64,000 bases of DNA from Arenicellales bacterium (GCA_963662635.2 CAXXFC010000004.1:8559-72558); one strand, 5' to 3'. Shown: positions 6,984-19,490, counted from the first letter of the stretch. A program made the numbers and translations. Notes: a model not told the origin generated them from the letters alone.

Positions 6984-8037
6984 ATGGCTAAAGCTCTTCA
7001 GTTGAAAACTGCTCCTTCTGACCTTGCAATGGTTCCGTTCGTCAGTGTTGAAAATATGATGCAAATTGTCAATTCTATCGGTATGGAAGCAACCTTGTAT
7101 GAACTCGTTTCGTATATTGAGGAAGATTTTTGCCGTTGGGAGCAATTTGACAAGGCACCTCGTATAGCCAGTTATTCCGAAGATGGAGTCATCGAGTTGA
7201 TGCCGACATGCGATGGCTCGATATACGGTTTCAAGTATGTCAATGGACATCCCAACAACGCGGGCAAGGGTTATCAAACTGTTACCGCGTTTGGATTGCT
7301 TGCGGATTTGTCGAGTGGCTATCCCGTTTTGTTATCTGAAATGACTATATTGACAGCTTTGCGCACAGTTGCAACATCGGCGATGGCAGCCAAATACTTA
7401 GCACCGACAGGTTCAAATACTATGGCGATCATCGGTAACGGCGCACAATGTGAATTTCAGGCGATGGCATTTAAAGCGATACTAGGGGTCGATACGGTTA
7501 GGCTCTATGATGTGGATGTTGCTGTCACCGCCAAAGCAATTCGCAATCTTGCCGGCCGGGATGTTCGAGTCATTTCTTGCAATTCTGCACAGGAAGCAGT
7601 TGCCGGAGCGCAAATCATCACTACATGTTGCGCTGGCAGGCAAAATGACTGTCGATATGGTCGACAAAGGCGTTCATATAAACGCAATCGGAGGCGATTG
7701 TCCCTGTAAAACCGAGTTACATCGCGACATCCTGTTGAGATCTGACATATTTGTCGAATTCACTCCACAAACCAGGATTGAAGGGGAAATCCAGCAATTG
7801 GACAAAGATCATGTTGTAACCGAAATCTGGCAGGTGATTGACGGCAGCGTTGCAGGTCGAATTTCCGACAAGCAAATCACGCTGTTTGACAGTGTCGGAT
7901 TTGCAATCGAAGATTTTTCTGTATTGCGCTTCATCCGCAGCCAACTCCTGCAAACAGGTCAATATGCAAACTTGGACATGCTTGCAGATCCCGACGACCC
8001 ACGTGACCTGTTCGGCATGATTATGCGTTCCGCATAG
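6984..8037 (+). pseudogene. ocd: ornithine cyclodeaminase, interrupted by a single-base frameshift (or sequencing error)
   Basis: ORF 6984..7709 matches OCD up to ...AVAGAQIITTCCAGRQ. ORF 7507..8037 (+1 frame) continues MTVDMVDKGVHINAIGGDCPCKTELH...TRIEGEIQQL...FDSVGFAIEDF. The frames join if one A of the A4 run 7642..7645 is removed. Confidence 0.85.
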
Positions 8038-8611
8038 GAAAAATATCTTCGGGAATCTCACCGGGTGTATGCGAGGTGGGGTATAAGTATTCAGACGAAA
8101 TGGCTTTGAAGGATTCATGAGTCCAGTAGCACCTGCCCGAGTATTCCGTCAACCTCTTCAAATAGAATAAACCAGTGTTCATTTCGATTCACTCGGGGCA
8201 GTGCTCGTCTATTTTTATCTTCAGTATTCTCCGAAACTTTGGGCGGGTAGCCGCATATTAGCGATGGGACAACTTAGACTTGAATGTTCACTGGCGAAAT
8301 ATAGGTTCAATTGAGTTGTCATTATCATCCGAGGGGGATTGTCGGCTGCTCCACTACAATCCTTTGATGTTTGATGCCATATACTATTGTCTCGTTACAG
8401 AAAATATACCAAGAAGAATCGTCCGGTGCAGTATTTCACCACGAAATATAATTAAAAAATCCACCTTGAGAATTGAATAAAAACTTGACTTGATTTTATG
8501 AATTTCAGAGTAAAATACGCCGAATTCTTTTCATCTATTGAGATTAGAATTCAGTTGTTTTATTCGGACTAGTTTTGTCCACAATCTCCACTCGCAATTG
8601 GTCCGCAAGTT

Positions 8612-9304
8612 ATGGAAAACATAGATGATATTGATCTTTCAGCACTGTCTGATGATGAACTGGTTGAGCAGATGCACGATGACCTGTATGACGGGTTGAA
8701 AGAGGAAATCGAAGAGGGAACTCAGATCTTATTGAGCAGGGGATGGGAGCCATATGCAGTGCTTCAGGATGCCCTTGTTGAAGGGATGCGAATTGTTGGC
8801 ATTGACTTCCGCGACGGAATACTTTTCGTGCCGGAAGTTCTTATGTCAGCGAACGCCATGAAAGGCGGGATGGCAATTCTGCGTCCACTTCTGGCAGAAA
8901 CCGGTGCGCCTACCATTGGAAAGATGGTTATCGGGACCGTCAAGGGCGACATACACGACATCGGTAAGAATCTCGTGGCGATGATGCTCGAAGGTGCAGG
9001 ATTCGAAGTAATCAATCTAGGGATAAATAATCCCGTGGAAAATTATCTTTCCGCTCTTGAGGAACATAAGCCGGAACTTCTCGGGATGTCGGCATTGCTG
9101 ACTACGACAATGCCATATATGAAAGTTGTCATTGACACTTTAGTCGAGCAAGGTATCCGGGATGACTATATAGTAGTCGTTGGCGGTGCTCCTTTGAATG
9201 AAGAATTCGGAAATGCTATCGGGGCGAATGCATACTGTCGTGATGCAGCAGTTGCTGTTGAAACCTGCAAGGAATTGGTGGCTGAGCTGCGGGCAGCGAG
9301 TTAA
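8612..9304 (+). CDS. cobalamin-binding corrinoid protein (MtbC/MtgC-like; B12 cap + B12-binding domain)
   Basis: 230-aa ORF with the DxHxxG motif (KGDIHDIGKNLV) and SALLTTT...GGAP. There is an acidic N-terminal extension (MENIDDIDLSALSDDELVEQMHDD). Confidence 0.85.
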   Translation: MENIDDIDLSALSDDELVEQMHDDLYDGLKEEIEEGTQILLSRGWEPYAVLQDALVEGMRIVGIDFRDGILFVPEVLMSANAMKGGMAILRPLLAETGAPTIGKMVIGTVKGDIHDIGKNLVAMMLEGAGFEVINLGINNPVENYLSALEEHKPELLGMSALLTTTMPYMKVVIDTLVEQGIRDDYIVVVGGAPLNEEFGNAIGANAYCRDAAVAVETCKELVAELRAAS

Positions 9305-9366
9305 CCACGATATCTTTTCTACTCTTCCTCATTCCCTCCATTCAACCAACCTTAATGAACTGATTT

Positions 9367-10281
9367 ATGACCGAAACCGTTCTATCTTCTCCGACCAGGA
9401 CGGTCGTGATTGGATATGAAAAACCATTTTGTGTAATTGGCGAGCGAATCAACCCGACAGGCAGGAAGCTTCTTGCGGCGGAAATGGCTCTCGGTGACTA
9501 CAGTCGAGTTGAGGCGGATGCCTTGGCGCAAATTCAGGCCGGGGCGCATATGCTGGATGTCAATGCAGGTATTCCTCTGGCTGACGAACCCAAGATTCTG
9601 GCCGAAGTGGTTCAGCTTGTTCAGTCGCTGACTGATGTACCTCTTGTTTTGGATTCTTCCATTGTCGCTGCATTGGAATCTGCACTGTCAGTGTACCAGG
9701 GACGCCCGCTGGTGAATTCGGTGACCGGAGAGGAAGAGCGATTGGAAACAGTTCTGCCTTTGGTCAAGAAGTATGACGCTGCAGTGGTCGCGATTTCCAA
9801 CGACGAAACCGGCATATCGGAAGATCCTAACGTACGTTATGAGGTGGCAAGGAAAATAGTCGAAAGGGCGGAAGACTATGGAATTGCCCGTTGCGACGTG
9901 GTTGTCGACCCACTAGTCATGCCGATCGGTGCCATCGGTCTGGCTGGTCGACAGGTGTTCGATATCGTGCACAGGTTGCGTACGGAACTGAAAGTCAACA
10001 CAACATGTGGTGCTTCCAATATCAGTTTCGGATTGCCAAACCGCCAGGGTTTGAATGCGGCGTTCCTGACGATGGCCATAGGTGCTGGAATGACCTCGGC
10101 AATTACCAGTCCGTTACATCCGGAAATTATGAGTGCCATCATGGCTGCCAACGTGATGATGGGCACCGACCGCGAATGCCGAGCGTGGATTTCTAAATTC
10201 CGCGAACCGGTTAGCGATCTGGACGGTGGAGAGCGAGCTGGTCGTCGAAACCGGGCTCGAAGACGAAGGGCAGTACACTAG
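9367..10281 (+). CDS. methyltetrahydrofolate:corrinoid methyltransferase (pterin-binding, MeTr/AcsE/CmuB/MetH-pterin-domain-like)
   Basis: 304-aa ORF with a pterin-binding TIM-barrel signature (VIGERINPTGRK, MLDVNAG, LVNSV, CGASNISFGLP). The C-terminal tail is unusually Arg-rich (RAGRRNRARRRRAVH). Confidence 0.8.
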   Translation: MTETVLSSPTRTVVIGYEKPFCVIGERINPTGRKLLAAEMALGDYSRVEADALAQIQAGAHMLDVNAGIPLADEPKILAEVVQLVQSLTDVPLVLDSSIVAALESALSVYQGRPLVNSVTGEEERLETVLPLVKKYDAAVVAISNDETGISEDPNVRYEVARKIVERAEDYGIARCDVVVDPLVMPIGAIGLAGRQVFDIVHRLRTELKVNTTCGASNISFGLPNRQGLNAAFLTMAIGAGMTSAITSPLHPEIMSAIMAANVMMGTDRECRAWISKFREPVSDLDGGERAGRRNRARRRRAVH

Positions 10282-10370
10282 TCGTTGTGTTGAGTAGTCT
10301 TCAACTGGCAGTTGGAACACCTGACTGAATAGCTTCGGGAATTGAATCTCAATTTCATGGGCGGCTTGGG

Positions 10371-12395
10371 ATGACTCAGAATACTGATTCCATGGTAGTT
10401 TTTACCCCGTCCGGGCGACGGGGTAGGTTCCTGAAAGGTACAACAATCCTTCAGGCTGCACGCTCATTGGGCGTGGACTTGGACTCGGTCTGCGGCGGCC
10501 GAGCAATGTGTGGGCGCTGTCAGATCGAACTAAGTACCGGGACATTCGCTAAGCATGGCGTTGAGTCGCGACACGAACACCTGAGTTCATTGAGTGAGGT
10601 TGAGACGGAGTACGCCAAATCTCACGAGTTTCTTGATGGACGCAGACTGGGGTGTTCCGTCAAAATACTGGGGGATGTTGTCATTGATGTCCCTCCCGAA
10701 AGCCAAGTTCATCGGCAGGTTGTCAGAAAACGCGCCGAGGTCCACGCAATCAATCTGAATCCTGTCGTTCGTATGTACTACGTTGAAGTACAGGAACCGA
10801 ACATGCACGATCCGTCGGGCGACTTGCAGCGTTTGAAAGACGCTCTTGAGTTTGACTGGAGGCTGGAGAATCTTTCCTGCGATCTGAGGCAGATTCAGCA
10901 GTTACAGAATGCTTTGCGAGAGGGTGAATGGAAGGTTACCGCCGCGGTACATGATGGATCACAGATAGTGGCGGTTTGGCCGGGTTTCAGGGATCAGGCC
11001 TATGGGTTGGCGATTGATGTGGGTTCAACCACGATCGCCGCACATCTGTGCGAACTGTCAAGCGGAGAGGTCGTTGAGTCCGCCGGAATCATGAATCCTC
11101 AGATCCGGTTCGGTGAGGATCTGATGAGCCGGGTGTCATATCTGATGATGAATCCCGGGCACGAGAAGGAAATGACTCAGGAAGTGCGTCGTGCCATCCA
11201 GAAATTGGCTGAAAATGTTGCCGAATCCCATGGCATCGATGTGGAGGACATTCTCGATCTAGTCTTTGTCGGAAATCCTGTGATGCAGCATCTCCTTTTG
11301 GGGATCAGTCCAATAGAACTTGGTGGCGCACCGTTCGCCCTGGCGACCGATGAGTCCGTAAGTATCTGGGCGAATGAGCTCGATCTTTCCCTTCATCCAA
11401 ATGCGCGCGCATTCATTCTGCCATGTATTGCCGGACATGTTGGTGCCGATGCTGCAGGTATGGTACTGTCGGAACAGCCGTACCTCAGTCAGGAAAACAT
11501 GCTTCTTGTTGACGTTGGAACCAATGCGGAGATCATACTGGGTAACCGCAACCGAATGGTCGCGGCATCTAGCCCTACCGGGCCGGCGTTCGAAGGCGCG
11601 CAGATCAGCAGTGGTCAACGTGCCGCACCGGGTGCGATAGAACGATTGCGAATCGACAAAGAAAGCCTGGTTCCAAAGTTCAAAGTCATCGGTTGTGATC
11701 TTTGGTCGATTGAAGAGGGATTTGAAGACGGAATCAAGGAATTCGGAGTAACCGGAATTTGCGGTTCGGGAATCATAGAGGCTATCGCTGAGATGTATCT
11801 GGCTGGAATAATCGATTCCGATGGAGTGATTCAAGGTAATCTTTCCGACCGAAGTGAGAGAATCATCGCAGATGGACGGACATTCTCTTATGTGATTCAG
11901 GCCACGGCACCGAGAGTTGTTGTTACCCAGAATGATGTCCGAGCGATTCAGTTGGCAAAGGCAGCACTGTATGCAGGTATACGCTTGCTTATGGACCGTC
12001 TTGGTCTGGAGGAAGTTGATGCGATACGACTGGCTGGCGCATTCGGAAGTCATGTCGATGTCAAGTATGCAATGGTCCTGGGTATGATTCCAGATTGCGA
12101 ACTGAGTCAGGTAACCTCTGCTGGTAACGCTGCTGGTACTGGTGCAAGAATTGCTTTGCTGGACCGTAACTCCCGAAGCGAAATACGTCAGGTCGTTCGT
12201 AATATCGAGAAAGTGGAGACGGCGGTGGAACCAAGCTTTCAAGCTTACTTTGTTGACGCAATGGCAATTCCACACAAGTCAGCAACATTCCCTCATCTAA
12301 GTAAAGTTGTGGATTTGCCGAAAACAGATACTCTTTCGAGAGATCAATCAAGTCAGCGTCGCAGAAGACGACGAGCTGTTGGCCGGGCAGGCTGA
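10371..12395 (+). CDS. corrinoid reductive activator (RACo/RamA-like): N-terminal [2Fe-2S] ferredoxin + ASKHA ATPase (DUF4445)
   Basis: 674-aa ORF. Plant-type ferredoxin Cys cluster (CGGRAMCGRCQ ... C) followed by ASKHA strings (GLAIDVGSTTIA, LLVDVGTNAEI, GICGSGIIEA). The C-terminal tail is QRRRRRRAVGRAG. Confidence 0.8.
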   Translation: MTQNTDSMVVFTPSGRRGRFLKGTTILQAARSLGVDLDSVCGGRAMCGRCQIELSTGTFAKHGVESRHEHLSSLSEVETEYAKSHEFLDGRRLGCSVKILGDVVIDVPPESQVHRQVVRKRAEVHAINLNPVVRMYYVEVQEPNMHDPSGDLQRLKDALEFDWRLENLSCDLRQIQQLQNALREGEWKVTAAVHDGSQIVAVWPGFRDQAYGLAIDVGSTTIAAHLCELSSGEVVESAGIMNPQIRFGEDLMSRVSYLMMNPGHEKEMTQEVRRAIQKLAENVAESHGIDVEDILDLVFVGNPVMQHLLLGISPIELGGAPFALATDESVSIWANELDLSLHPNARAFILPCIAGHVGADAAGMVLSEQPYLSQENMLLVDVGTNAEIILGNRNRMVAASSPTGPAFEGAQISSGQRAAPGAIERLRIDKESLVPKFKVIGCDLWSIEEGFEDGIKEFGVTGICGSGIIEAIAEMYLAGIIDSDGVIQGNLSDRSERIIADGRTFSYVIQATAPRVVVTQNDVRAIQLAKAALYAGIRLLMDRLGLEEVDAIRLAGAFGSHVDVKYAMVLGMIPDCELSQVTSAGNAAGTGARIALLDRNSRSEIRQVVRNIEKVETAVEPSFQAYFVDAMAIPHKSATFPHLSKVVDLPKTDTLSRDQSSQRRRRRRAVGRAG

Positions 12396-13828
12396 TGACA
12401 GCGGATTTGATTATTACCGGTGGTCGGGTAATTGACGGTACCGGCGACAATTCGAGGATTGCTGATGTAGTCGTCGACAAAGGCCGAATCACAGGTGTCG
12501 GTGATTTCACGAATATTGAGGCAGAACGCACGCTGAACGCGGTCGGAAAATGTGTCGCACCGGGATTCATTGATGCCCACACGCACGATGATCGCGTGCT
12601 TCTTTCCTCACCGGATATGTCGTGCAAGATTAGTCAGGGTGTGACGACAGTCGTGACCGGAAATTGTGGAGTCAGCCTGGCACCTCTTGCGAATGTTGAT
12701 CCGCCACCACCGCTGAATCTTTTGGGTGATAGGCAATGGTATCGATTCGCAACCACTGCTGCCTATGCCAATGAATTGTACGAGGAACCACCCGCAATCA
12801 ACTCCATGATGCTTGTCGGGCATTCTACATTGCGAATTGCTACGATGGACCGATTGGATCGTCCTGCAACAAAGCGGGAGATTCTGAAGATGGAAAAATT
12901 GGTCGATGCGGCGATGGAGCAGGGCGCGAGCGGTTTCAGTACCGGCCTTGAGTATCCGCCCTCAATCCGAGCTTCTGAAGAGGAAGTCATTGCCCTGGCG
13001 AAACGGGCTTCCATAGCCGGGGGCATCTATACCACGCACATGCGCAACGAAAGTGATGATGTGCATCTTTCAATTGATGAGACGGTACGCGTTGCCAGGG
13101 AAGCTGACATCAGTACGGTAATTTCCCACCATAAGACCTGTGGAAAGAACAATTTTGGCAGAACCTGCGAAACACTGCCCCAGATCGAGGCGGCAAAGAA
13201 ATTCGTTCGCCTCAACTTCGATGTTTATCCCTATATCGCCAGTTCTACTTCTCTGCTTCCACAGTATTTGGGTAAATCCGAGCGGGTGTTGATTACATGG
13301 TCTGATCCGTATCCGGAATGCAGCGGAAAGGAATTGAGTCAAATTTGTGAAGACTGGAAAATCAGCACAGACGAAGCGGTCGATTTGCTGTCGCCAGCGG
13401 GAGCCATTTATTTTCAAATGGATGAGGAGGACCTTCAAAGAGTATTGAAGTTTCCAGGTTCAATGATCGGCTCCGATGGATTGCCCAGCGATCGGTTTCC
13501 ACACCCTCGTCTTTGGGGAACATTTCCTCGTGTATTGGGTCACTATAGCAGAGACCTCGGGCTATTTTCGCTAGAAGAAGCGGTTGCACGGATGACTGGC
13601 AACACGTCGGATACTTTTGGAATTACCGACCGGGGTTACATTAGAGAAGGTTTGTCTGCGGACATTGTTGTATTTGACCCGGAAACAGTCATTGACACAG
13701 CAAGTTTCGACGATCCAATTCAACCGGCAACGGGAATCGAATCGGTTTTCGTCAATGGTGACTTAGTTTACGAAGACTATCAATGGACTGGAAATCGGCC
13801 TGGTGTACTTTTGTCGCGCGCTGCATGA
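12395..13828 (+). CDS. N-acyl-D-amino-acid deacylase (D-aminoacylase) family amidohydrolase
   Basis: 477-aa ORF with VAPGFIDAHTHDD, SQGVTTVVTGNCGVSLAP and GSDGLP. Its ATG overlaps the upstream stop (TGATG at 12393..12397). Confidence 0.8.
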   Translation: MTADLIITGGRVIDGTGDNSRIADVVVDKGRITGVGDFTNIEAERTLNAVGKCVAPGFIDAHTHDDRVLLSSPDMSCKISQGVTTVVTGNCGVSLAPLANVDPPPPLNLLGDRQWYRFATTAAYANELYEEPPAINSMMLVGHSTLRIATMDRLDRPATKREILKMEKLVDAAMEQGASGFSTGLEYPPSIRASEEEVIALAKRASIAGGIYTTHMRNESDDVHLSIDETVRVAREADISTVISHHKTCGKNNFGRTCETLPQIEAAKKFVRLNFDVYPYIASSTSLLPQYLGKSERVLITWSDPYPECSGKELSQICEDWKISTDEAVDLLSPAGAIYFQMDEEDLQRVLKFPGSMIGSDGLPSDRFPHPRLWGTFPRVLGHYSRDLGLFSLEEAVARMTGNTSDTFGITDRGYIREGLSADIVVFDPETVIDTASFDDPIQPATGIESVFVNGDLVYEDYQWTGNRPGVLLSRAA

Positions 13829-13859
13829 CGGAATTTTTAGAATTTCTAGAGACTTACCG

Positions 13860-15830
13860 TTAAGTGTCCACCTGACCGGAGACTGAAACGGTGATTTGGG
13901 ACTCGATGAAAATCTTTTGTCCTCCCAGACCATTAATGATGTTGTCATTGCGTTTTGTCTCTATGCGCGCTTCGACCGGATTCACCGAAACTGCACGATT
14001 TCGAGCAAGATTTTCAAGTTCGTTAGTTGCCACTTCAGCAGCCTCGTCAAGATCGGAAAAGTCCTGAATACCGTTCGGTGTGTGTATGCGATAGACTCCA
14101 TCTGCGGGCGAGGTGATCAATCCTGAAACTCGTTGGGAAACACTACCTGCAGCCGCACCCACAGCGTTTCCTACTTCTGAGTGTTTTGGTATGTCGTACG
14201 AGAGATTCAGGCGCGATGCAACCTCGGGATAGATTGGCAACGCCGGTGCACCTACCACAGCTAGACTTCCGGCAATGGACAACTCTACGTTCACCAGTCC
14301 GGGATCAGATTTCGAAATTGCTTTCGCCAAAAGATACTCACCAACGTCAACGTGATGGTGTTCTGCAGATTCTGAACGAATTGCAGCCCGAACTAGCACT
14401 TCGCATGATTTATGAATCACAGCTTCGATTACATTCTCGCAGAACTGTTCCTGACTATCCCAACTCGGCTCCATGCCACTTACAAATCCTCTCGTCCAAA
14501 GTTGGGCGGCAAGTGTTGCCCCCTCAACAGACCATCGATTCATTTTGCCCAGTACATGTAAAGCGTCAGTCGGTGTGAAAGCACACATTTGAACTAAATC
14601 CAAGACTCGGAGTCGGTTGAACGCACGCAGCATTCGACCATCCCTGAAGAGATCTTCACAACTGATGGGTCCTTCTTCCATCAATTCCCATAACTTGTTG
14701 TCAATTCTGTTGAGATTCTGAACATCTACAGTTGATCGGCGACGAGTCAGAAAACATCCTTGATATTCTTGCGGTTTACGTTTCAACTGCTTTTTCAGAA
14801 TGTCTACGATTTCAGGATATTGGTAGCTGAGAGAAGAGATGGGCATGGCACGATTTGGACCTATACCGACTGGATTTGTGAATGAGACCAGACTGTCTCC
14901 GCCCAAGCCCACAGTAAAAACATCAACGGCTTCAACAAATGTCTTGAATTCGCCAATATTTGCACCTTTACGGTCAATTCTCGGTTCGCCGCCAGAAAGA
15001 ATCGCGATATCAGTTGTCGTGCCCCCGATGTCCGAGACAATTGACACATCGCCACGGGATAGTCGGCTGGCACCTACGATACTGGCTGCTGGACCGGATA
15101 ACACGGTTTCCACCGGGCGGACTTTAGCAACGTCGGCACTGATCATTGAACCGTCTCCCTTGACAACCATGAGGGGAGCGACGACATTGTGGTCTTCGAG
15201 TTCCTTGGAAACGGTTTGAACCAGCTCAGTGATCGGTGCGATCAGTCGCGCGTTCAAGACGGCGGTTGTCGCACGACGCGGCGCGTCGAGATTTGCTGTC
15301 AGTTCATGGGTACAAGTGACCGGTCTGTCCGACAGTTGCAAAATCAGGTTCCGAATTGCGATCTCATGCGCATTGTTCCGCACCGAGAACATACCTGCGA
15401 CCGCAAATGCAGAGACTGACTTTGCGTATTTCCTTATCGCGGTTTCCGCCTGTTGCAGATCGATCGGTTCTGATTCATCGCCGTGGGCGGTATGTCCCCC
15501 GTTCAGGAACACTGCCGGGTCATCGCGTAAGGCGGTATTCAGTTTTGCACGGTTTAAGGATTCTGGTTTATGCCCGATCAACAATAGACAGACAGAGCCT
15601 CCGCGTCCCTCCACAATGGAGTTCGTAGCCAGGGTGGTTGAAATCGCAGTAACCTGGACACATTCTGAGAGCGGCAGTTCATCCGAATCTATACGTTGGA
15701 TAGCTTCGCGGATTCCGATCGATAAGTCGTAGTGTGTCGTAAGTGTTTTAGCGGTTCGAACGATACCGCTATCATTGTCATATAGGACAGCGTCTGTATA
15801 AGTCCCACCTGTGTCGATTCCTAGGCGCAT
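13860..15830 (-). CDS. hydantoinase/oxoprolinase A (HyuA)-family protein
   Basis: 656-aa ORF. The N-terminus MRLGIDTGGTYTDAVLYD and DIGGTTTDIA are typical ASKHA/hydantoinase_A motifs. No HyuB-type partner is adjacent. Confidence 0.7.
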   Translation of the reverse strand: MRLGIDTGGTYTDAVLYDNDSGIVRTAKTLTTHYDLSIGIREAIQRIDSDELPLSECVQVTAISTTLATNSIVEGRGGSVCLLLIGHKPESLNRAKLNTALRDDPAVFLNGGHTAHGDESEPIDLQQAETAIRKYAKSVSAFAVAGMFSVRNNAHEIAIRNLILQLSDRPVTCTHELTANLDAPRRATTAVLNARLIAPITELVQTVSKELEDHNVVAPLMVVKGDGSMISADVAKVRPVETVLSGPAASIVGASRLSRGDVSIVSDIGGTTTDIAILSGGEPRIDRKGANIGEFKTFVEAVDVFTVGLGGDSLVSFTNPVGIGPNRAMPISSLSYQYPEIVDILKKQLKRKPQEYQGCFLTRRRSTVDVQNLNRIDNKLWELMEEGPISCEDLFRDGRMLRAFNRLRVLDLVQMCAFTPTDALHVLGKMNRWSVEGATLAAQLWTRGFVSGMEPSWDSQEQFCENVIEAVIHKSCEVLVRAAIRSESAEHHHVDVGEYLLAKAISKSDPGLVNVELSIAGSLAVVGAPALPIYPEVASRLNLSYDIPKHSEVGNAVGAAAGSVSQRVSGLITSPADGVYRIHTPNGIQDFSDLDEAAEVATNELENLARNRAVSVNPVEARIETKRNDNIINGLGGQKIFIESQITVSVSGQVDT

Positions 15831-15986
15831 AACTTGTCAATCAGACCGATCAAACAGTCGAAAAGAATCTATTGGTGACCTGAGCGTCAGATCTCAGTTA
15901 ACGCGATGGAATCTTCCGACCAATAGAGGAATCCTGATCGGTACGTCAGAAACAAGTCCAACTTCAGTTGGCTACAGCCAATCGGC

Positions 15987-16988
15987 TTAGTCAGTTCCAT
16001 TGACTCTGACGACGATGCGTCCAACAATCGATCCATCCATGAACTGGTCGAACGAAGCGGGAAGGTTATCAAATTCAACCACCTCTTTCACAATCAGATT
16101 CATATCCGCAGGTTTCAGGTCCGAGCACATTCGCTCCCATGCGTTATCTCGAACTTCCCTTGGCATCTCAAGCGAGTTGATGCCCAGCAGGGAAACCCCT
16201 CTTAGGATAAACGGCATCACAGTCGTTTTGAGTCCGACTCCACCGGCAAGCCCAACTGAACCGATATTGCCCCAAGGCTTGACGGTTCTGGTCAGCCAAC
16301 CCAGAATATCCCCACCGACGTTGTCAACCGCACCACCCCATTGCGCTCTCTCCAGAGGTCGATCACCCATATCCAAGCTGTGTCGATCAATCAGTTCGCC
16401 GGCTCCTAGCTGTCGAAGATATTGCTCATGCTGTTTTTTTCCTGAGAGTGCGATGACATCGTAACCCAAGCCGGAAAACATACTGATCGCGAAACTCCCG
16501 ACCCCTCCGGTCGCACCGGTGACTACAATCGGTCCGCGTTCGGGAATCTGTCCATTATCTTCCATTCGAATGACTGCGATCGCTGCAGTGAATCCAGCGG
16601 TGCCAAATGCCATCGCATCATATTCTGAGAGCCCCGATGGCATCGGCACAATACAATCACCCGGAACTCTAGCGTATTCTGAGTAACCACCGTCGTGAAT
16701 CTCAGACAACCCACAACCCACCACGAGTACAGAATCGCCTTCTTTGTAGCGCGAATCATTCGAGGCAGCAACTTTTCCTGCCAAGTCGATTCCACCATTG
16801 AGCGGGTACTTCCGCAAAATCCGTCCCTTCCCAGTCGCAGCAAGGGCATCTTTGAAATTGATCGTGGAATAACTCGTTTTGATTACGACATCGCCCTCAG
16901 TCAGGTCGTCAAGCGACATATTCGTGAAATTCGCAGATATGGATTTATCTTCGCCTTGGCTGATACGGTAACTGCGGAATGTATCCAT
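15987..16988 (-). CDS. YhdH/AcuI-family NADPH-dependent oxidoreductase (acrylyl-CoA reductase-like)
   Basis: ORF 15987..17036. Start moved to MDTFRSYRI (GGAG 7 nt upstream). Strings INFKDALAATGKG, GGYSEYARVP and VTGATGGVGS match the MDR/YhdH family. Confidence 0.75.
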   Translation of the reverse strand: MDTFRSYRISQGEDKSISANFTNMSLDDLTEGDVVIKTSYSTINFKDALAATGKGRILRKYPLNGGIDLAGKVAASNDSRYKEGDSVLVVGCGLSEIHDGGYSEYARVPGDCIVPMPSGLSEYDAMAFGTAGFTAAIAVIRMEDNGQIPERGPIVVTGATGGVGSFAISMFSGLGYDVIALSGKKQHEQYLRQLGAGELIDRHSLDMGDRPLERAQWGGAVDNVGGDILGWLTRTVKPWGNIGSVGLAGGVGLKTTVMPFILRGVSLLGINSLEMPREVRDNAWERMCSDLKPADMNLIVKEVVEFDNLPASFDQFMDGSIVGRIVVRVNGTD

Positions 16989-17280
16989 TTTGTTCTCCTT
17001 GGGTATGTAGGGATTTAGTCCGAATACTTGGTGCAAAGAAAATTTCGAATAAAGTTCGACAGTTTCTAATCTAATTCACAATCTTCAAAGCACGCAGTAT
17101 TTTATAGCACTTCGAATTTTCAACGCACTCATCCTCTGTTCGCGGCTGTTTTTCTGGCTTCCGAGGCTGTCAAAAATTTTCCAATGATAAGGCGTTAAAA
17201 AATAATCAAAACATAACAAAAAATTGTTGTATATTTTTGCGACTTTTTATTTTTTTGCTGACTTAATTTGACGACAAACA

Positions 17281-18231
17281 ATGAGTTTCACACAATATGC
17301 GCAAGCAACAACCCGGCTACAGAGAAGCGAACTGGCAGTTCCAGGATCGCGGCCGGAATTCTTCGAAAAAGCGGCGGAATCCAACGCTGATTTCATCTTT
17401 CTCGATTGTGAGGACGCTGTTATTCCAGATGATAAGGAACGCGCACGTCACAACATCATCCAAGCACTGAATGAAATTGACTGGAAGGGCAAGACAATGT
17501 CTGTTCGGATCAATGGATTGGATACGCACTATATGTACAGGGACGTAGTGGATATTGTCGAGCAAGCAGGGAATTGCCTCGATACGATTCTGGTTCCGAA
17601 AGTCGGTCATTCTTCTGATGTATACATGGTTGACTGCTTGCTCACCCAGATCGAGACAGCAAGGCAACTGAAAAGGAAAATCGGCATAGAGTGTCTAATT
17701 GAAACCGCATTGGGAGGTGCCAATGTGATGTCTATTGCACAATCAAGTGCGAGACTCGAGGCATTGCATTTTGGAGTGGCCGACTATGCGGCGAGCATGC
17801 GTGCGCGAACAGTGAATATCGGAGGGCTAAACCCGGATTATCAGTGTGACGGAGCATTAGGTGATCAGTGGCACGCTACGCTGGTAAATATGGTGACCGC
17901 ATGTCGTGCGTATGGGCTTCGGGCGATTGATGGACCCTATGGAGACTTTAGCGACCCCAACGGATATCGCGACGCCGCGAAGCGCGTTGCTGCTTTGGGT
18001 TATGAGGGTAAATGGGCAATTCATCCGAGTCAGATTGATCTGGCTAATGAAATCATGTCGCCTCCGGAACAGGAAGTGCACCGAGCCAAGTGTGTTCTGA
18101 AAGCGTTGGAGGAAGCTGCGAAGGCTGGCAGAGGTGCCGCCGAGTATGATGGAAAGATGATTGATGCGGCATCCGAAAGAATGGCAAGAAACATCGTAGC
18201 GCAGGCTGAACTCATTGCCAATAAGTCCTGA
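17281..18231 (+). CDS. mcl: L-malyl-CoA/beta-methylmalyl-CoA lyase (HpcH/CitE family)
   Basis: 316-aa ORF, near-collinear by recall with Methylobacterium MclA (RSELAVPGS, IFLDCEDAV, INGLDTHYMYRDVVDIVE, GVADYAAS, IDGPYGDFSDPNGY, GKWAIHPSQIDLAN, EEAAKAGRGA). Confidence 0.85.
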   Translation: MSFTQYAQATTRLQRSELAVPGSRPEFFEKAAESNADFIFLDCEDAVIPDDKERARHNIIQALNEIDWKGKTMSVRINGLDTHYMYRDVVDIVEQAGNCLDTILVPKVGHSSDVYMVDCLLTQIETARQLKRKIGIECLIETALGGANVMSIAQSSARLEALHFGVADYAASMRARTVNIGGLNPDYQCDGALGDQWHATLVNMVTACRAYGLRAIDGPYGDFSDPNGYRDAAKRVAALGYEGKWAIHPSQIDLANEIMSPPEQEVHRAKCVLKALEEAAKAGRGAAEYDGKMIDAASERMARNIVAQAELIANKS

Positions 18232-18302
18232 CAGACTGCTTGACGGTTCAAGGGTCGTCAATTGGTTAATGAAAGTTTATAAAACAGGGAGTTACATCAG
18301 AA

Positions 18303-19490
18303 ATGGATATTCACGAATATCAGGCAAAGGAAATTCTATCGGGTTTCGGAATTCCGGTCCCTAGAGGAGGCGTTGCCTACAGTCCCGAACAGGCAGTCTA
18401 TCGCGCCAATGAGATTGGTGGAGAGAAATGGCTGGTCAAGGCACAGATTCATTCAGGTGCGCGCGGCAAGGCAGGTGGGATCAAGTTTTGCCACAATGGC
18501 GAGGAAATCTGGAATGCTTCGGAAAGTTTGTTGGGTCAGCGACTGGTTACCCACCAAACCGGAAGCCAAGGCAAGCTCGTATATCGCCTCTATGTCGAGG
18601 AGGCTTTTGAGATTGAACATGAGTATTACATCGGTTTTGTTTTGGACCGACAGAAAGAGCGAATTGCAATTGTCGCGTCATCCCAAGGTGGTATGGAGAT
18701 CGAAGAGATAGCCTCAGTTGATCCGAATTCAATTGTCAGGGCTACAGTTGAGCCTGCCGTTGGAATGCAACCATTCCAAGCACGGGATATAGCCTTTGCG
18801 TTGGGAATTGACAGGCGACTCACCAGTCAGGTTGTTACCACACTGCTTGGATGTTATGACGCACTCGTCAATCTCGATGCCATGATGGTCGAGATCAACC
18901 CTCTTGCTGTAACTAAAGAAGGTGCACTGGTTGCTCTGGACGCAAAAATGGGATTCGATGACAATGCTCTTTTCAGAAGACCGAGCATTTCAGAATTGAG
19001 AGATAAATCCCAAGAAGACATTCGTGAGATGCGGGCGGCCGACCGCGGTTTGAATTATGTTGGCCTTGATGGAAATATCGGTTGCATTATCAATGGTGCC
19101 GGACTGGCGATGGCAACTATGGACATTATCAAGCATGCCGGTGGTGAGCCTGCCAATTTTCTGGATATTGGTGGGGGTGCAACACCGGAACGCGTTGCCA
19201 AAGCAATTCATTTGGTTTTGTCCGACAGTAAAGTCGAGACGGTTGTCGTCAATATATTTGCGGGAATCAATCGGTGTGATTGGGTTGCCGAAGGTATTGT
19301 TCAAGCTGTCAGCAATCTCGAATTGGACATTCCGTTGGTGATCAGATTGTCAGGGACAAACGCTGACAAGGGGCGTGAAATATTACTGAAAAGTGGACTT
19401 GACTTCTATATCGCGGACACGTTGAAAGAAGTCGCGAAAAAAGCGGTTGATGCATGGAAGAAACACCGAGAGAGAATGGAGGCAGAATAA
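18303..19490 (+). CDS. mtkA: malate--CoA ligase (malate thiokinase) beta subunit / SucC paralogue
   Basis: 395-aa [63 protein letters not shown] and [15 protein letters not shown] closely resemble MtkA. It lies immediately downstream of mcl. Confidence 0.8.

Follow-up and report, generated by a model that had tools for sequence, protein, structure and literature searches.

A corrinoid methyl-transfer operon from an uncultured Arenicellales bacterium is probably a shared hub for MttB-type methyltransferases encoded elsewhere in the genome

A corrinoid methyl-transfer system described in 2025 from Ruegeria pomeroyi and other aerobic marine bacteria comprises MtgB (pfam06253), MtgC, the bidirectional MtgD, the homocysteine-binding MtgE, RamA, DUF1638 and MetF2 (PMC12478193). 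The gene set of Ruegeria and Sinorhizobium reads MtgC-DUF1638-MetF2-MtgD-RamA, and in Ruegeria both glycine betaine demethylation and methionine synthesis require one and the same carrier and pterin enzyme; a split MetH of such build occurs in Phaeobacter and Ruegeria (PMC12478193). Genomes with mtgCD contain up to seven pfam06253 open reading frames (ORFs), and diverse methylated compounds have been proposed to use this route (PMC12478193). In Eubacterium limosum, several MttB paralogues encoded elsewhere share a single corrinoid protein, a single second methyltransferase (MT2) and a single activase, an arrangement that has been reconstituted (PMC8604678). Here we describe a four-gene operon within a 64,000-nucleotide stretch of DNA (the window; contig C4:8559-72558) from an Arenicellales bacterium (Gammaproteobacteria). 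Genes for a corrinoid carrier, a pterin-binding methyltransferase and a RACo/RamA-type activase, together called the trio (8612-12395), are followed in this operon by the gene of a D-aminoacylase-family amidohydrolase. We consider it probable, with good confidence, that the trio is a shared MtgC/MtgD-RamA hub for MttB enzymes encoded elsewhere, and probably for a split methionine synthase too, and that the amidohydrolase is a passenger.

The source assembly measures 3.73 Mb and is 93% complete. Domain calls were made using Pfam and NCBIfam profiles, and homologues in the genome were located using tblastn. The ORFs and profile matches agree with the initial annotation, which had read four co-directional genes of these kinds from the DNA. 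The carrier consists of a B12-binding_2 cap and a B12-binding domain, with the DxHxxG motif lying within GDIHDIG in the translation. Its best NCBIfam models are two for the glycine-betaine-specific corrinoid protein MtgC (NF047996 and NF047995), and its orthologues are 83-100% identical across the order. The pterin enzyme matches PRK07535, a methyl-tetrahydrofolate (methyl-THF):corrinoid methyltransferase model, at 361 bits against a cut-off of 259. The TGATG overlap reported earlier is present in the sequence, as the activase stop codon (TGA, 12393-12395) shares its last nucleotide with the amidohydrolase start codon (ATG, 12395-12397). It had also been claimed that no substrate methyltransferase is recognisable in the window, and indeed none of the MttB, UroD-type or homocysteine-domain kinds is encoded there; MtaB was not searched for separately. 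Two explanations had been offered, namely that the partner is encoded elsewhere or that a different fold, that of the amidohydrolase, does the job.

The first of these explanations is the one that the genome bears out. A search of the genome for MttB, UroD-like and homocysteine-domain genes, as had been suggested, returned 13 matches to PF06253 (the MttB superfamily; 253-745 bits), none of which lies in the window, together with two UroD-type genes beside carriers and one homocysteine-binding protein. The puzzle of the missing substrate methyltransferase is resolved by these 13 MttB genes. Twelve of them have no internal stop and are thus non-pyrrolysine members. The remaining gene (C6:1270143-1271594) is divided by an in-frame TGA into pieces of 481 and 172 amino acids; this probable pseudogene is 5.4 kb away from an intact paralogue at C6:1277004. 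According to tblastn, the genome encodes three corrinoid proteins and two activases in total. Both of the other carriers adjoin a UroD-type methyltransferase of their own, so that the window set is the sole carrier system without a private substrate methyltransferase, and the 13 MttB genes are the only substrate methyltransferase genes in the genome without a carrier of their own. Homologues of the three trio proteins are missing from all 13 MttB neighbourhoods. Encoded there instead are six DMGDH-like FAD/GCV_T enzymes, M24 creatinase-like proteins, a TMADH-like flavoenzyme, an aldehyde dehydrogenase, an aminotransferase and a major facilitator superfamily transporter, contents to be expected of islands for the catabolism of different methylated amines. 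The six are paralogues of about 810 amino acids beside MttB genes (C6:91728, 1681281, 1683713, 1278610, 1217150 and 680431); the one that was scanned has a DMGDH-type FAD oxidoreductase plus GCV_T architecture. Such content suggests that each island would perform a B12-dependent first demethylation, followed by THF-dependent oxidative demethylations.

Comparison across the order points in the same direction. The comparative set consisted of 243 genomes of the order Arenicellales, of which 36, in three genera, form the window's own family (f1). An activase orthologue was found in 204 of the 243 genomes and MttB in 213, and every activase-positive genome is also MttB-positive (204/204). MttB occurs without the activase in nine genomes, which are mostly incomplete, while 30 genomes have neither gene. 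Distances between the two genes were read from the coordinates of the two order-wide searches taken together, and by this measure the best MttB match lies less than 6 kb from the activase orthologue in at least 36 sister-family genomes. Twelve loci carrying an orthologous trio were fetched from outside f1. Their proteins are 83-89% (carrier), 69-75% (pterin enzyme) and 62-72% (activase) identical to those of the window, and in six of the 12 the trio is adjoined by a gene 67-71% identical to MttB1 of the window genome (C6:96265-97803). At all 12 of these loci DUF1638 separates the carrier gene from the pterin gene, accompanied at three of them by MTHFR and its C-terminal-domain gene; DUF1638 is present in 164 other genomes of the order. 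In the f1 loci, which have no DUF1638, the position corresponds to window 9305-9366.

The proteins concerned also share a terminal feature. At their C termini the pterin enzyme and the activase carry poly-Arg tails (encoded at 10225-10281 and 12330-12395), in which eight of the last 20 residues are arginines; this places both among the top four of 2664 ORFs. Both tails are conserved across the order, while the linkers vary. All 13 MttB proteins start with Arg-rich peptides (for example C6:96265 and C6:1277004) and take five of the top six places genome-wide. The homocysteine-binding protein ends in SRKRGGRRRS, and an Arg-rich terminal peptide is found on one UroD-type enzyme too. The acidic N-terminal segment of the carrier is highly conserved. 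Ranked genome-wide, the two poly-Arg tails, the tail of the homocysteine-binding protein, the MttB peptides and this segment are all extreme. Neither the amidohydrolase nor the HyuA-like ATPase encoded next to it carries an Arg-rich terminal peptide. The peptides and the acidic carrier segment may constitute a shared docking code. If the peptides do dock on the carrier, then the MttBs, the pterin enzyme, the activase and the homocysteine-binding protein would be its partners, and the amidohydrolase would be excluded.

We propose the following course of methyl transfer. Any of the roughly 13 MttB-superfamily enzymes would methylate the Co(I) form of the carrier from a quaternary or methylated amine, and the pterin enzyme would hand the methyl group to THF, from which it would enter one-carbon oxidation and the serine cycle. 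Carrier that had become oxidised would be rescued by the activase through ATP-dependent reduction of Co(II) to Co(I). Running in reverse with the homocysteine-binding protein, the same core would form a split methionine synthase. The core probably does have this second role, because a standalone homocysteine-binding protein is encoded (PF02574, 334 amino acids, C2:10390-11394) and tblastn found no fused MetH, that is, no fused pterin/B12 matches, in the 93% complete genome. Since the genome fits a dual-role model in these two respects, both directions of methyl flow are probably used. The earlier remark that the direction is open, with a split MetH as one possibility, fits the bidirectional core of Ruegeria (PMC12478193). 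A short MetE-like gene (C6:2132731-2133639; open frame of 366 amino acids, with only a Meth_synt_2 domain) may encode a 'core' methionine synthase, which could draw on methylated corrinoid too.

Table 1. Features of the operon and its flanks (window coordinates) and of the other two corrinoid loci of the genome (C6 coordinates).
Feature	Position	Strand	Domains or content
Leader upstream of the corrinoid gene, 574 nt	8038-8611	+	No Rfam match
Corrinoid (B12-binding) carrier, MtgC/MtqC-like, with strongly acidic N-terminal segment	8612-9304	+	PF02607 + PF02310
Pterin-binding methylcorrinoid:THF methyltransferase, MtgD/MtgA/MtqA-like, with poly-Arg C-terminal tail	9367-10281	+	PF00809, PRK07535
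[2Fe-2S]-ASKHA reductive activator, RACo/RamA type, with poly-Arg C-terminal tail	10371-12395	+	Fer2 + RACo_linker + Raco_middle + RACo_C_ter
Zn amidohydrolase, D-aminoacylase (N-acyl-D-amino-acid deacylase type) family	12395-13828	+	Amidohydro_3, Amidohydro_1
HyuA-like ASKHA ATPase, partner-less, convergent on the operon	13860-15830	-	Hydant_A_N + partial Hydantoinase_A
Second corrinoid system	C6:353120-361499		MTHFR-like, 223-aa gene, pterin methyltransferase, UroD-type methyltransferase, carrier, RACo, CobW-type GTPase, GntR-like regulator (by eye)
Third carrier locus	C6:748972-755977		457-aa UroD-type methyltransferase, 384-aa polytopic membrane protein without Pfam match, 4Fe-4S protein, molybdopterin oxidoreductase

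The remaining member of the operon is an addition peculiar to f1. The amidohydrolase gene lies 3' of the activase gene, on the same strand and 0-167 nt away, in 30 of the 36 f1 genomes, with differing flanks; the stop/start overlap itself occurs only in the closest species. Conservation of the linkage, raised as a check in the initial annotation, holds within the family and extends to no other. Outside f1, in 13 further families, the trio is present without a linked amidohydrolase in about 170 genomes, most of which have no copy at all. Six f1 genomes of the same genus have an intact trio and no amidohydrolase copy anywhere, and in five of them the HyuA-like gene is situated 0.1-2.3 kb downstream of the activase. 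Homologues with 36-60% identity are present in 32 genomes outside f1 (29 of them activase-positive) and, where the coordinates of both genes are listed, are never adjacent to the activase. In the phylogenetic tree the linked copies form one clade (100/100 support) nested among Arenicellales sequences. By this topology, in which the nearest relatives of the clade are other Arenicellales sequences, the gene belongs natively to the order and became linked to the trio a single time. Identities of 59-96% for the amidohydrolase, against 78-100% for the trio, show that the former diverges much faster.

In families f9 and f10 three genes, for the amidohydrolase, a convergent AraC/DJ-1 (GbdR-like) regulator and a HyuA-like ATPase, make up a module away from the trio, and the same arrangement is kept in two f1 genera; on this comparison, the window's genus has lost the regulator. 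As the module exists without the trio in f9 and f10, it is with the regulator and the ATPase, rather than with the corrinoid genes, that the amidohydrolase has its older and steadier association. Read from gene order, the place of the amidohydrolase in the operon is a family-specific event, and the protein is dispensable for the trio. We propose that it joined the trio once, in the f1 ancestor, from the older module of amidohydrolase, GbdR-like AraC regulator and HyuA-like ATPase, and that it would be co-transcribed by position without being needed for methyl transfer.

As an enzyme, the amidohydrolase looks orthodox. It matches the D-aminoacylase of Alcaligenes faecalis DA1 (PDB 1M7J) at 535 bits and 54% identity over 473 aligned residues, in an ungapped alignment that spans residues 4-476. 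The HTHDD and GNCG motifs, which had been singled out earlier as metal-ligand contexts, do align with the metal ligands H67/H69 and C96 of 1M7J. H67, H69, C96, H220, H250 and D366, which we take to be the metal and catalytic residues, are identical in the window protein and all 15 linked orthologues, and so are Y192, K252, Y283, S289 and R377, presumably the backbone-binding residues. The window protein thus keeps every metal, catalytic and backbone-binding residue of 1M7J, as well as its YPY motif. Judged by these residues, it is a catalytically intact hydrolase of the D-aminoacylase type. The side-chain pocket, however, is more polar and acidic than that of 1M7J (F191E, M254C, L298G and M346Q), and the substrate is probably more polar or cationic; with the pocket so changed (E191, G298), the preferred substrate is uncertain. 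E191 is fixed in the linked clade (16 of 16 sequences, the window's included), and position 298 varies among G, E, P, S and R. We know of no D-aminoacylase-family gene set beside a corrinoid operon, and the genome contains no paralogue of the amidohydrolase, the vicinity of the MttB islands included. In the D-aminoacylase family, L298 is a specificity position and YPY is the hinge of an inserted mobile alpha/beta domain (review PMC12149444).

The HyuA-like protein is 656 amino acids long, with its Hydant_A_N and partial Hydantoinase_A matches confined to residues 2-328; its C-terminal half has no Pfam match, and no HyuB-type gene is adjacent. The gene ends 31 nt past the amidohydrolase gene. 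Full-length, single-copy orthologues are present in 166 of the 243 genomes, all 166 of which are MttB-positive. The gene is less than 5 kb from the trio or the amidohydrolase in 33 of the 36 f1 genomes, and it is found by the trio in f1 and f8; elsewhere it is usually far away. Two candidates for a DUF1638 substitute were examined for a distribution complementary to that of DUF1638 and rejected: the HyuA-like ATPase, since it is present in 166 genomes of which most carry DUF1638, and the amidohydrolase, since it is absent from six genomes that also have no DUF1638.

Several alternatives to a hub with a passenger were weighed. The strongest of them, which we nonetheless regard as unlikely, is that the amidohydrolase, the HyuA-like ATPase and the GbdR-like regulator are accessory members of a betaine or methylated-amine regulon, in which the hydrolase would expose or complete a substrate, for example by deacylating an N-acylated D-configured or cationic amino compound entering or leaving the MttB route; it would then belong to the pathway, though not as its methyltransferase. 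The constant strand and the short distance to the activase (0-167 nt in 30 genomes), which persist where the flanks are rearranged, would be in keeping with such a role, as would the restriction of the ATPase to MttB-positive genomes, its position by the trio in f1 and f8, and the fixation of F191E. The regulator gives a further connection. Copies from the module (f9, f10 and f1) are 44-65% identical to the regulator found beside the trio and MttB1 in f5, f8 and f11; outside f1 the identity is 59-65%, and the module copy is the best or only copy. The accessory role is difficult to reconcile, however, with the six congeners that lost the amidohydrolase and kept the trio and the ATPase, with the roughly 170 trio genomes of other families that have no linked copy, and with the free variation at the L298 position and the faster divergence of the amidohydrolase. 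To our knowledge, moreover, the products of known MttB reactions carry no amide bond. A more elaborate form of this idea is quite doubtful: hydrolase, ATPase and GbdR-type regulator would make up an unrecognised accessory branch, in which the hydrolase would deacylate an N-acylated, cationic or methylated D-configured amino compound on its way into or out of an MttB substrate, and the ATPase would service the carrier in this DUF1638-less family.

It is very unlikely that the trio serves solely as a split cobalamin-dependent methionine synthase, with the MttBs using other carriers or none. The standalone homocysteine-binding protein with its similar Arg-rich tail and the absence of a fused MetH would suit this proposal, and a split MetH has its precedent in Phaeobacter and Ruegeria (PMC12478193). 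Against it stand the MttB gene in every activase-positive genome, the MttB gene by the trio in at least 36 genomes, the pairing of each of the other two carriers with a UroD-type enzyme, and the Ruegeria core, which does both jobs (PMC12478193). The second explanation offered by the initial annotation, in which the amidohydrolase itself would be the missing substrate:corrinoid methyltransferase with a new fold, is hardly credible: the protein alone, of the operon's members, lacks an assigned role, and its translation is coupled here to that of the activase, but canonical substrate methyltransferase genes abound in the genome, the hydrolase active site is complete in a protein 54% identical to a characterised deacylase, the Arg-rich peptide found on the trio enzymes, the 13 MttBs, the homocysteine-binding protein and one UroD-type enzyme is missing from it, its older partners are a regulator and a HyuA-like ATPase and not the trio, and the gene is absent from most trio-bearing genomes, with a linkage limited to f1 and lost in six congeners. 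As grounds for abandoning that explanation, the initial annotation had named a canonical substrate methyltransferase gene co-regulated elsewhere and a linkage that is not conserved; such genes, their co-regulation apart, and the failure of the linkage beyond f1 were both seen.

A number of observations weigh against the hub reading itself. All 36 f1 genomes, like the window genome, lack DUF1638 and have kept the activase. The carrier scores below the curated cut-offs of both MtgC models (209 bits against 370 and 177 against 310 in NCBIfam) and, by these scores, is no close orthologue of the characterised MtgC proteins of anaerobes. Its likeness to Ruegeria MtgC, as that of the whole core to the Ruegeria system, is one of gene set and published descriptions, not of direct sequence comparison. 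Which of the three carriers each MttB uses is something we infer, and the mechanism as a whole, in an uncultured lineage, is drawn by homology from systems that were reconstituted or genetically tested. The MetE-like gene may make the methionine-synthase role of the core redundant. Finally, the amidohydrolase may have a real, if non-essential, functional tie to the system, given its tight linkage (0-167 nt) in 30 genomes and a module regulator that looks orthologous to the one beside the trio and MttB in other families.

Other observations concern the surroundings of the operon and the remaining corrinoid loci. An Rfam scan of positions 7000-17500 (E<=1) found no riboswitch, cobalamin and THF types included, or other RNA in the leader. 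Promoter-like sites were not above shuffled expectation in a scan for promoters and terminators; with neither above that expectation, the limits of the operon rest on spacing only. The ornithine cyclodeaminase gene upstream (window 6984-8037) is split into overlapping ORFs at 6984-7709 and 7507-8037. The same split (241 + 126 amino acids) is present in a 96%-related genome (L009), so that it reflects an inherited frameshift or pseudogene rather than an error in the sequencing of a single assembly. In L009, the closest relative, an 856-amino-acid gene without a Pfam match and a DDE transposase are inserted (15249-19155) between the acuI-like and malyl-CoA-lyase-like genes, at a place where the window (17037-17280) has no insert. 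The third carrier locus sets a corrinoid methyltransferase beside a respiratory-type molybdenum enzyme, which is an unusual pairing.

On the hub reading, an apparent anomaly disappears, since MttB-based amine demethylation would normally have a 'hub' layout, in which the corrinoid operon contains no substrate enzyme. The aerobic MtgBCD(E) system would thereby extend to the Arenicellales, where it would be nearly universal (204/243) and, with 13 MttB genes here, unusually expanded. For f1 it raises the questions of how the carrier is reactivated without DUF1638, what the HyuA-like ATPase does and whether a D-aminoacylase feeds the pathway.

The closest parallel is to MtgBCDE of R. pomeroyi DSS-3, which likewise has a separate carrier, a separate pterin-binding methyltransferase and a RamA-type activase. 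Shared with Ruegeria as well are several pfam06253 paralogues located elsewhere, a standalone homocysteine-binding module and the lack of a classical MetH; in the sister families the genes for the carrier, DUF1638, MetF2, the pterin enzyme and the activase are adjacent, as they are in Ruegeria. Unlike Ruegeria, f1 has neither DUF1638 nor a local MetF2, the window genome has 13 MttB genes where 'up to seven' were reported (Mausz et al., PNAS 2025; PMC12478193), and a D-aminoacylase and a HyuA-like ATPase are attached to the core. The locus also resembles MtqC/MtqA/RamQ of E. limosum, where one carrier, one MT2 and one activase are common to several MttB paralogues in separate clusters (MtpB, MtcB and MtyB; PMC8604678). 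E. limosum differs in being an anaerobic acetogen that feeds the Wood-Ljungdahl pathway, with a carrier gene separate from mtqA and ramQ (PMC8604678), whereas in the present gammaproteobacterial genome, which also has serine-cycle-type (malyl-CoA lyase-like) genes, all three belong to a single operon.

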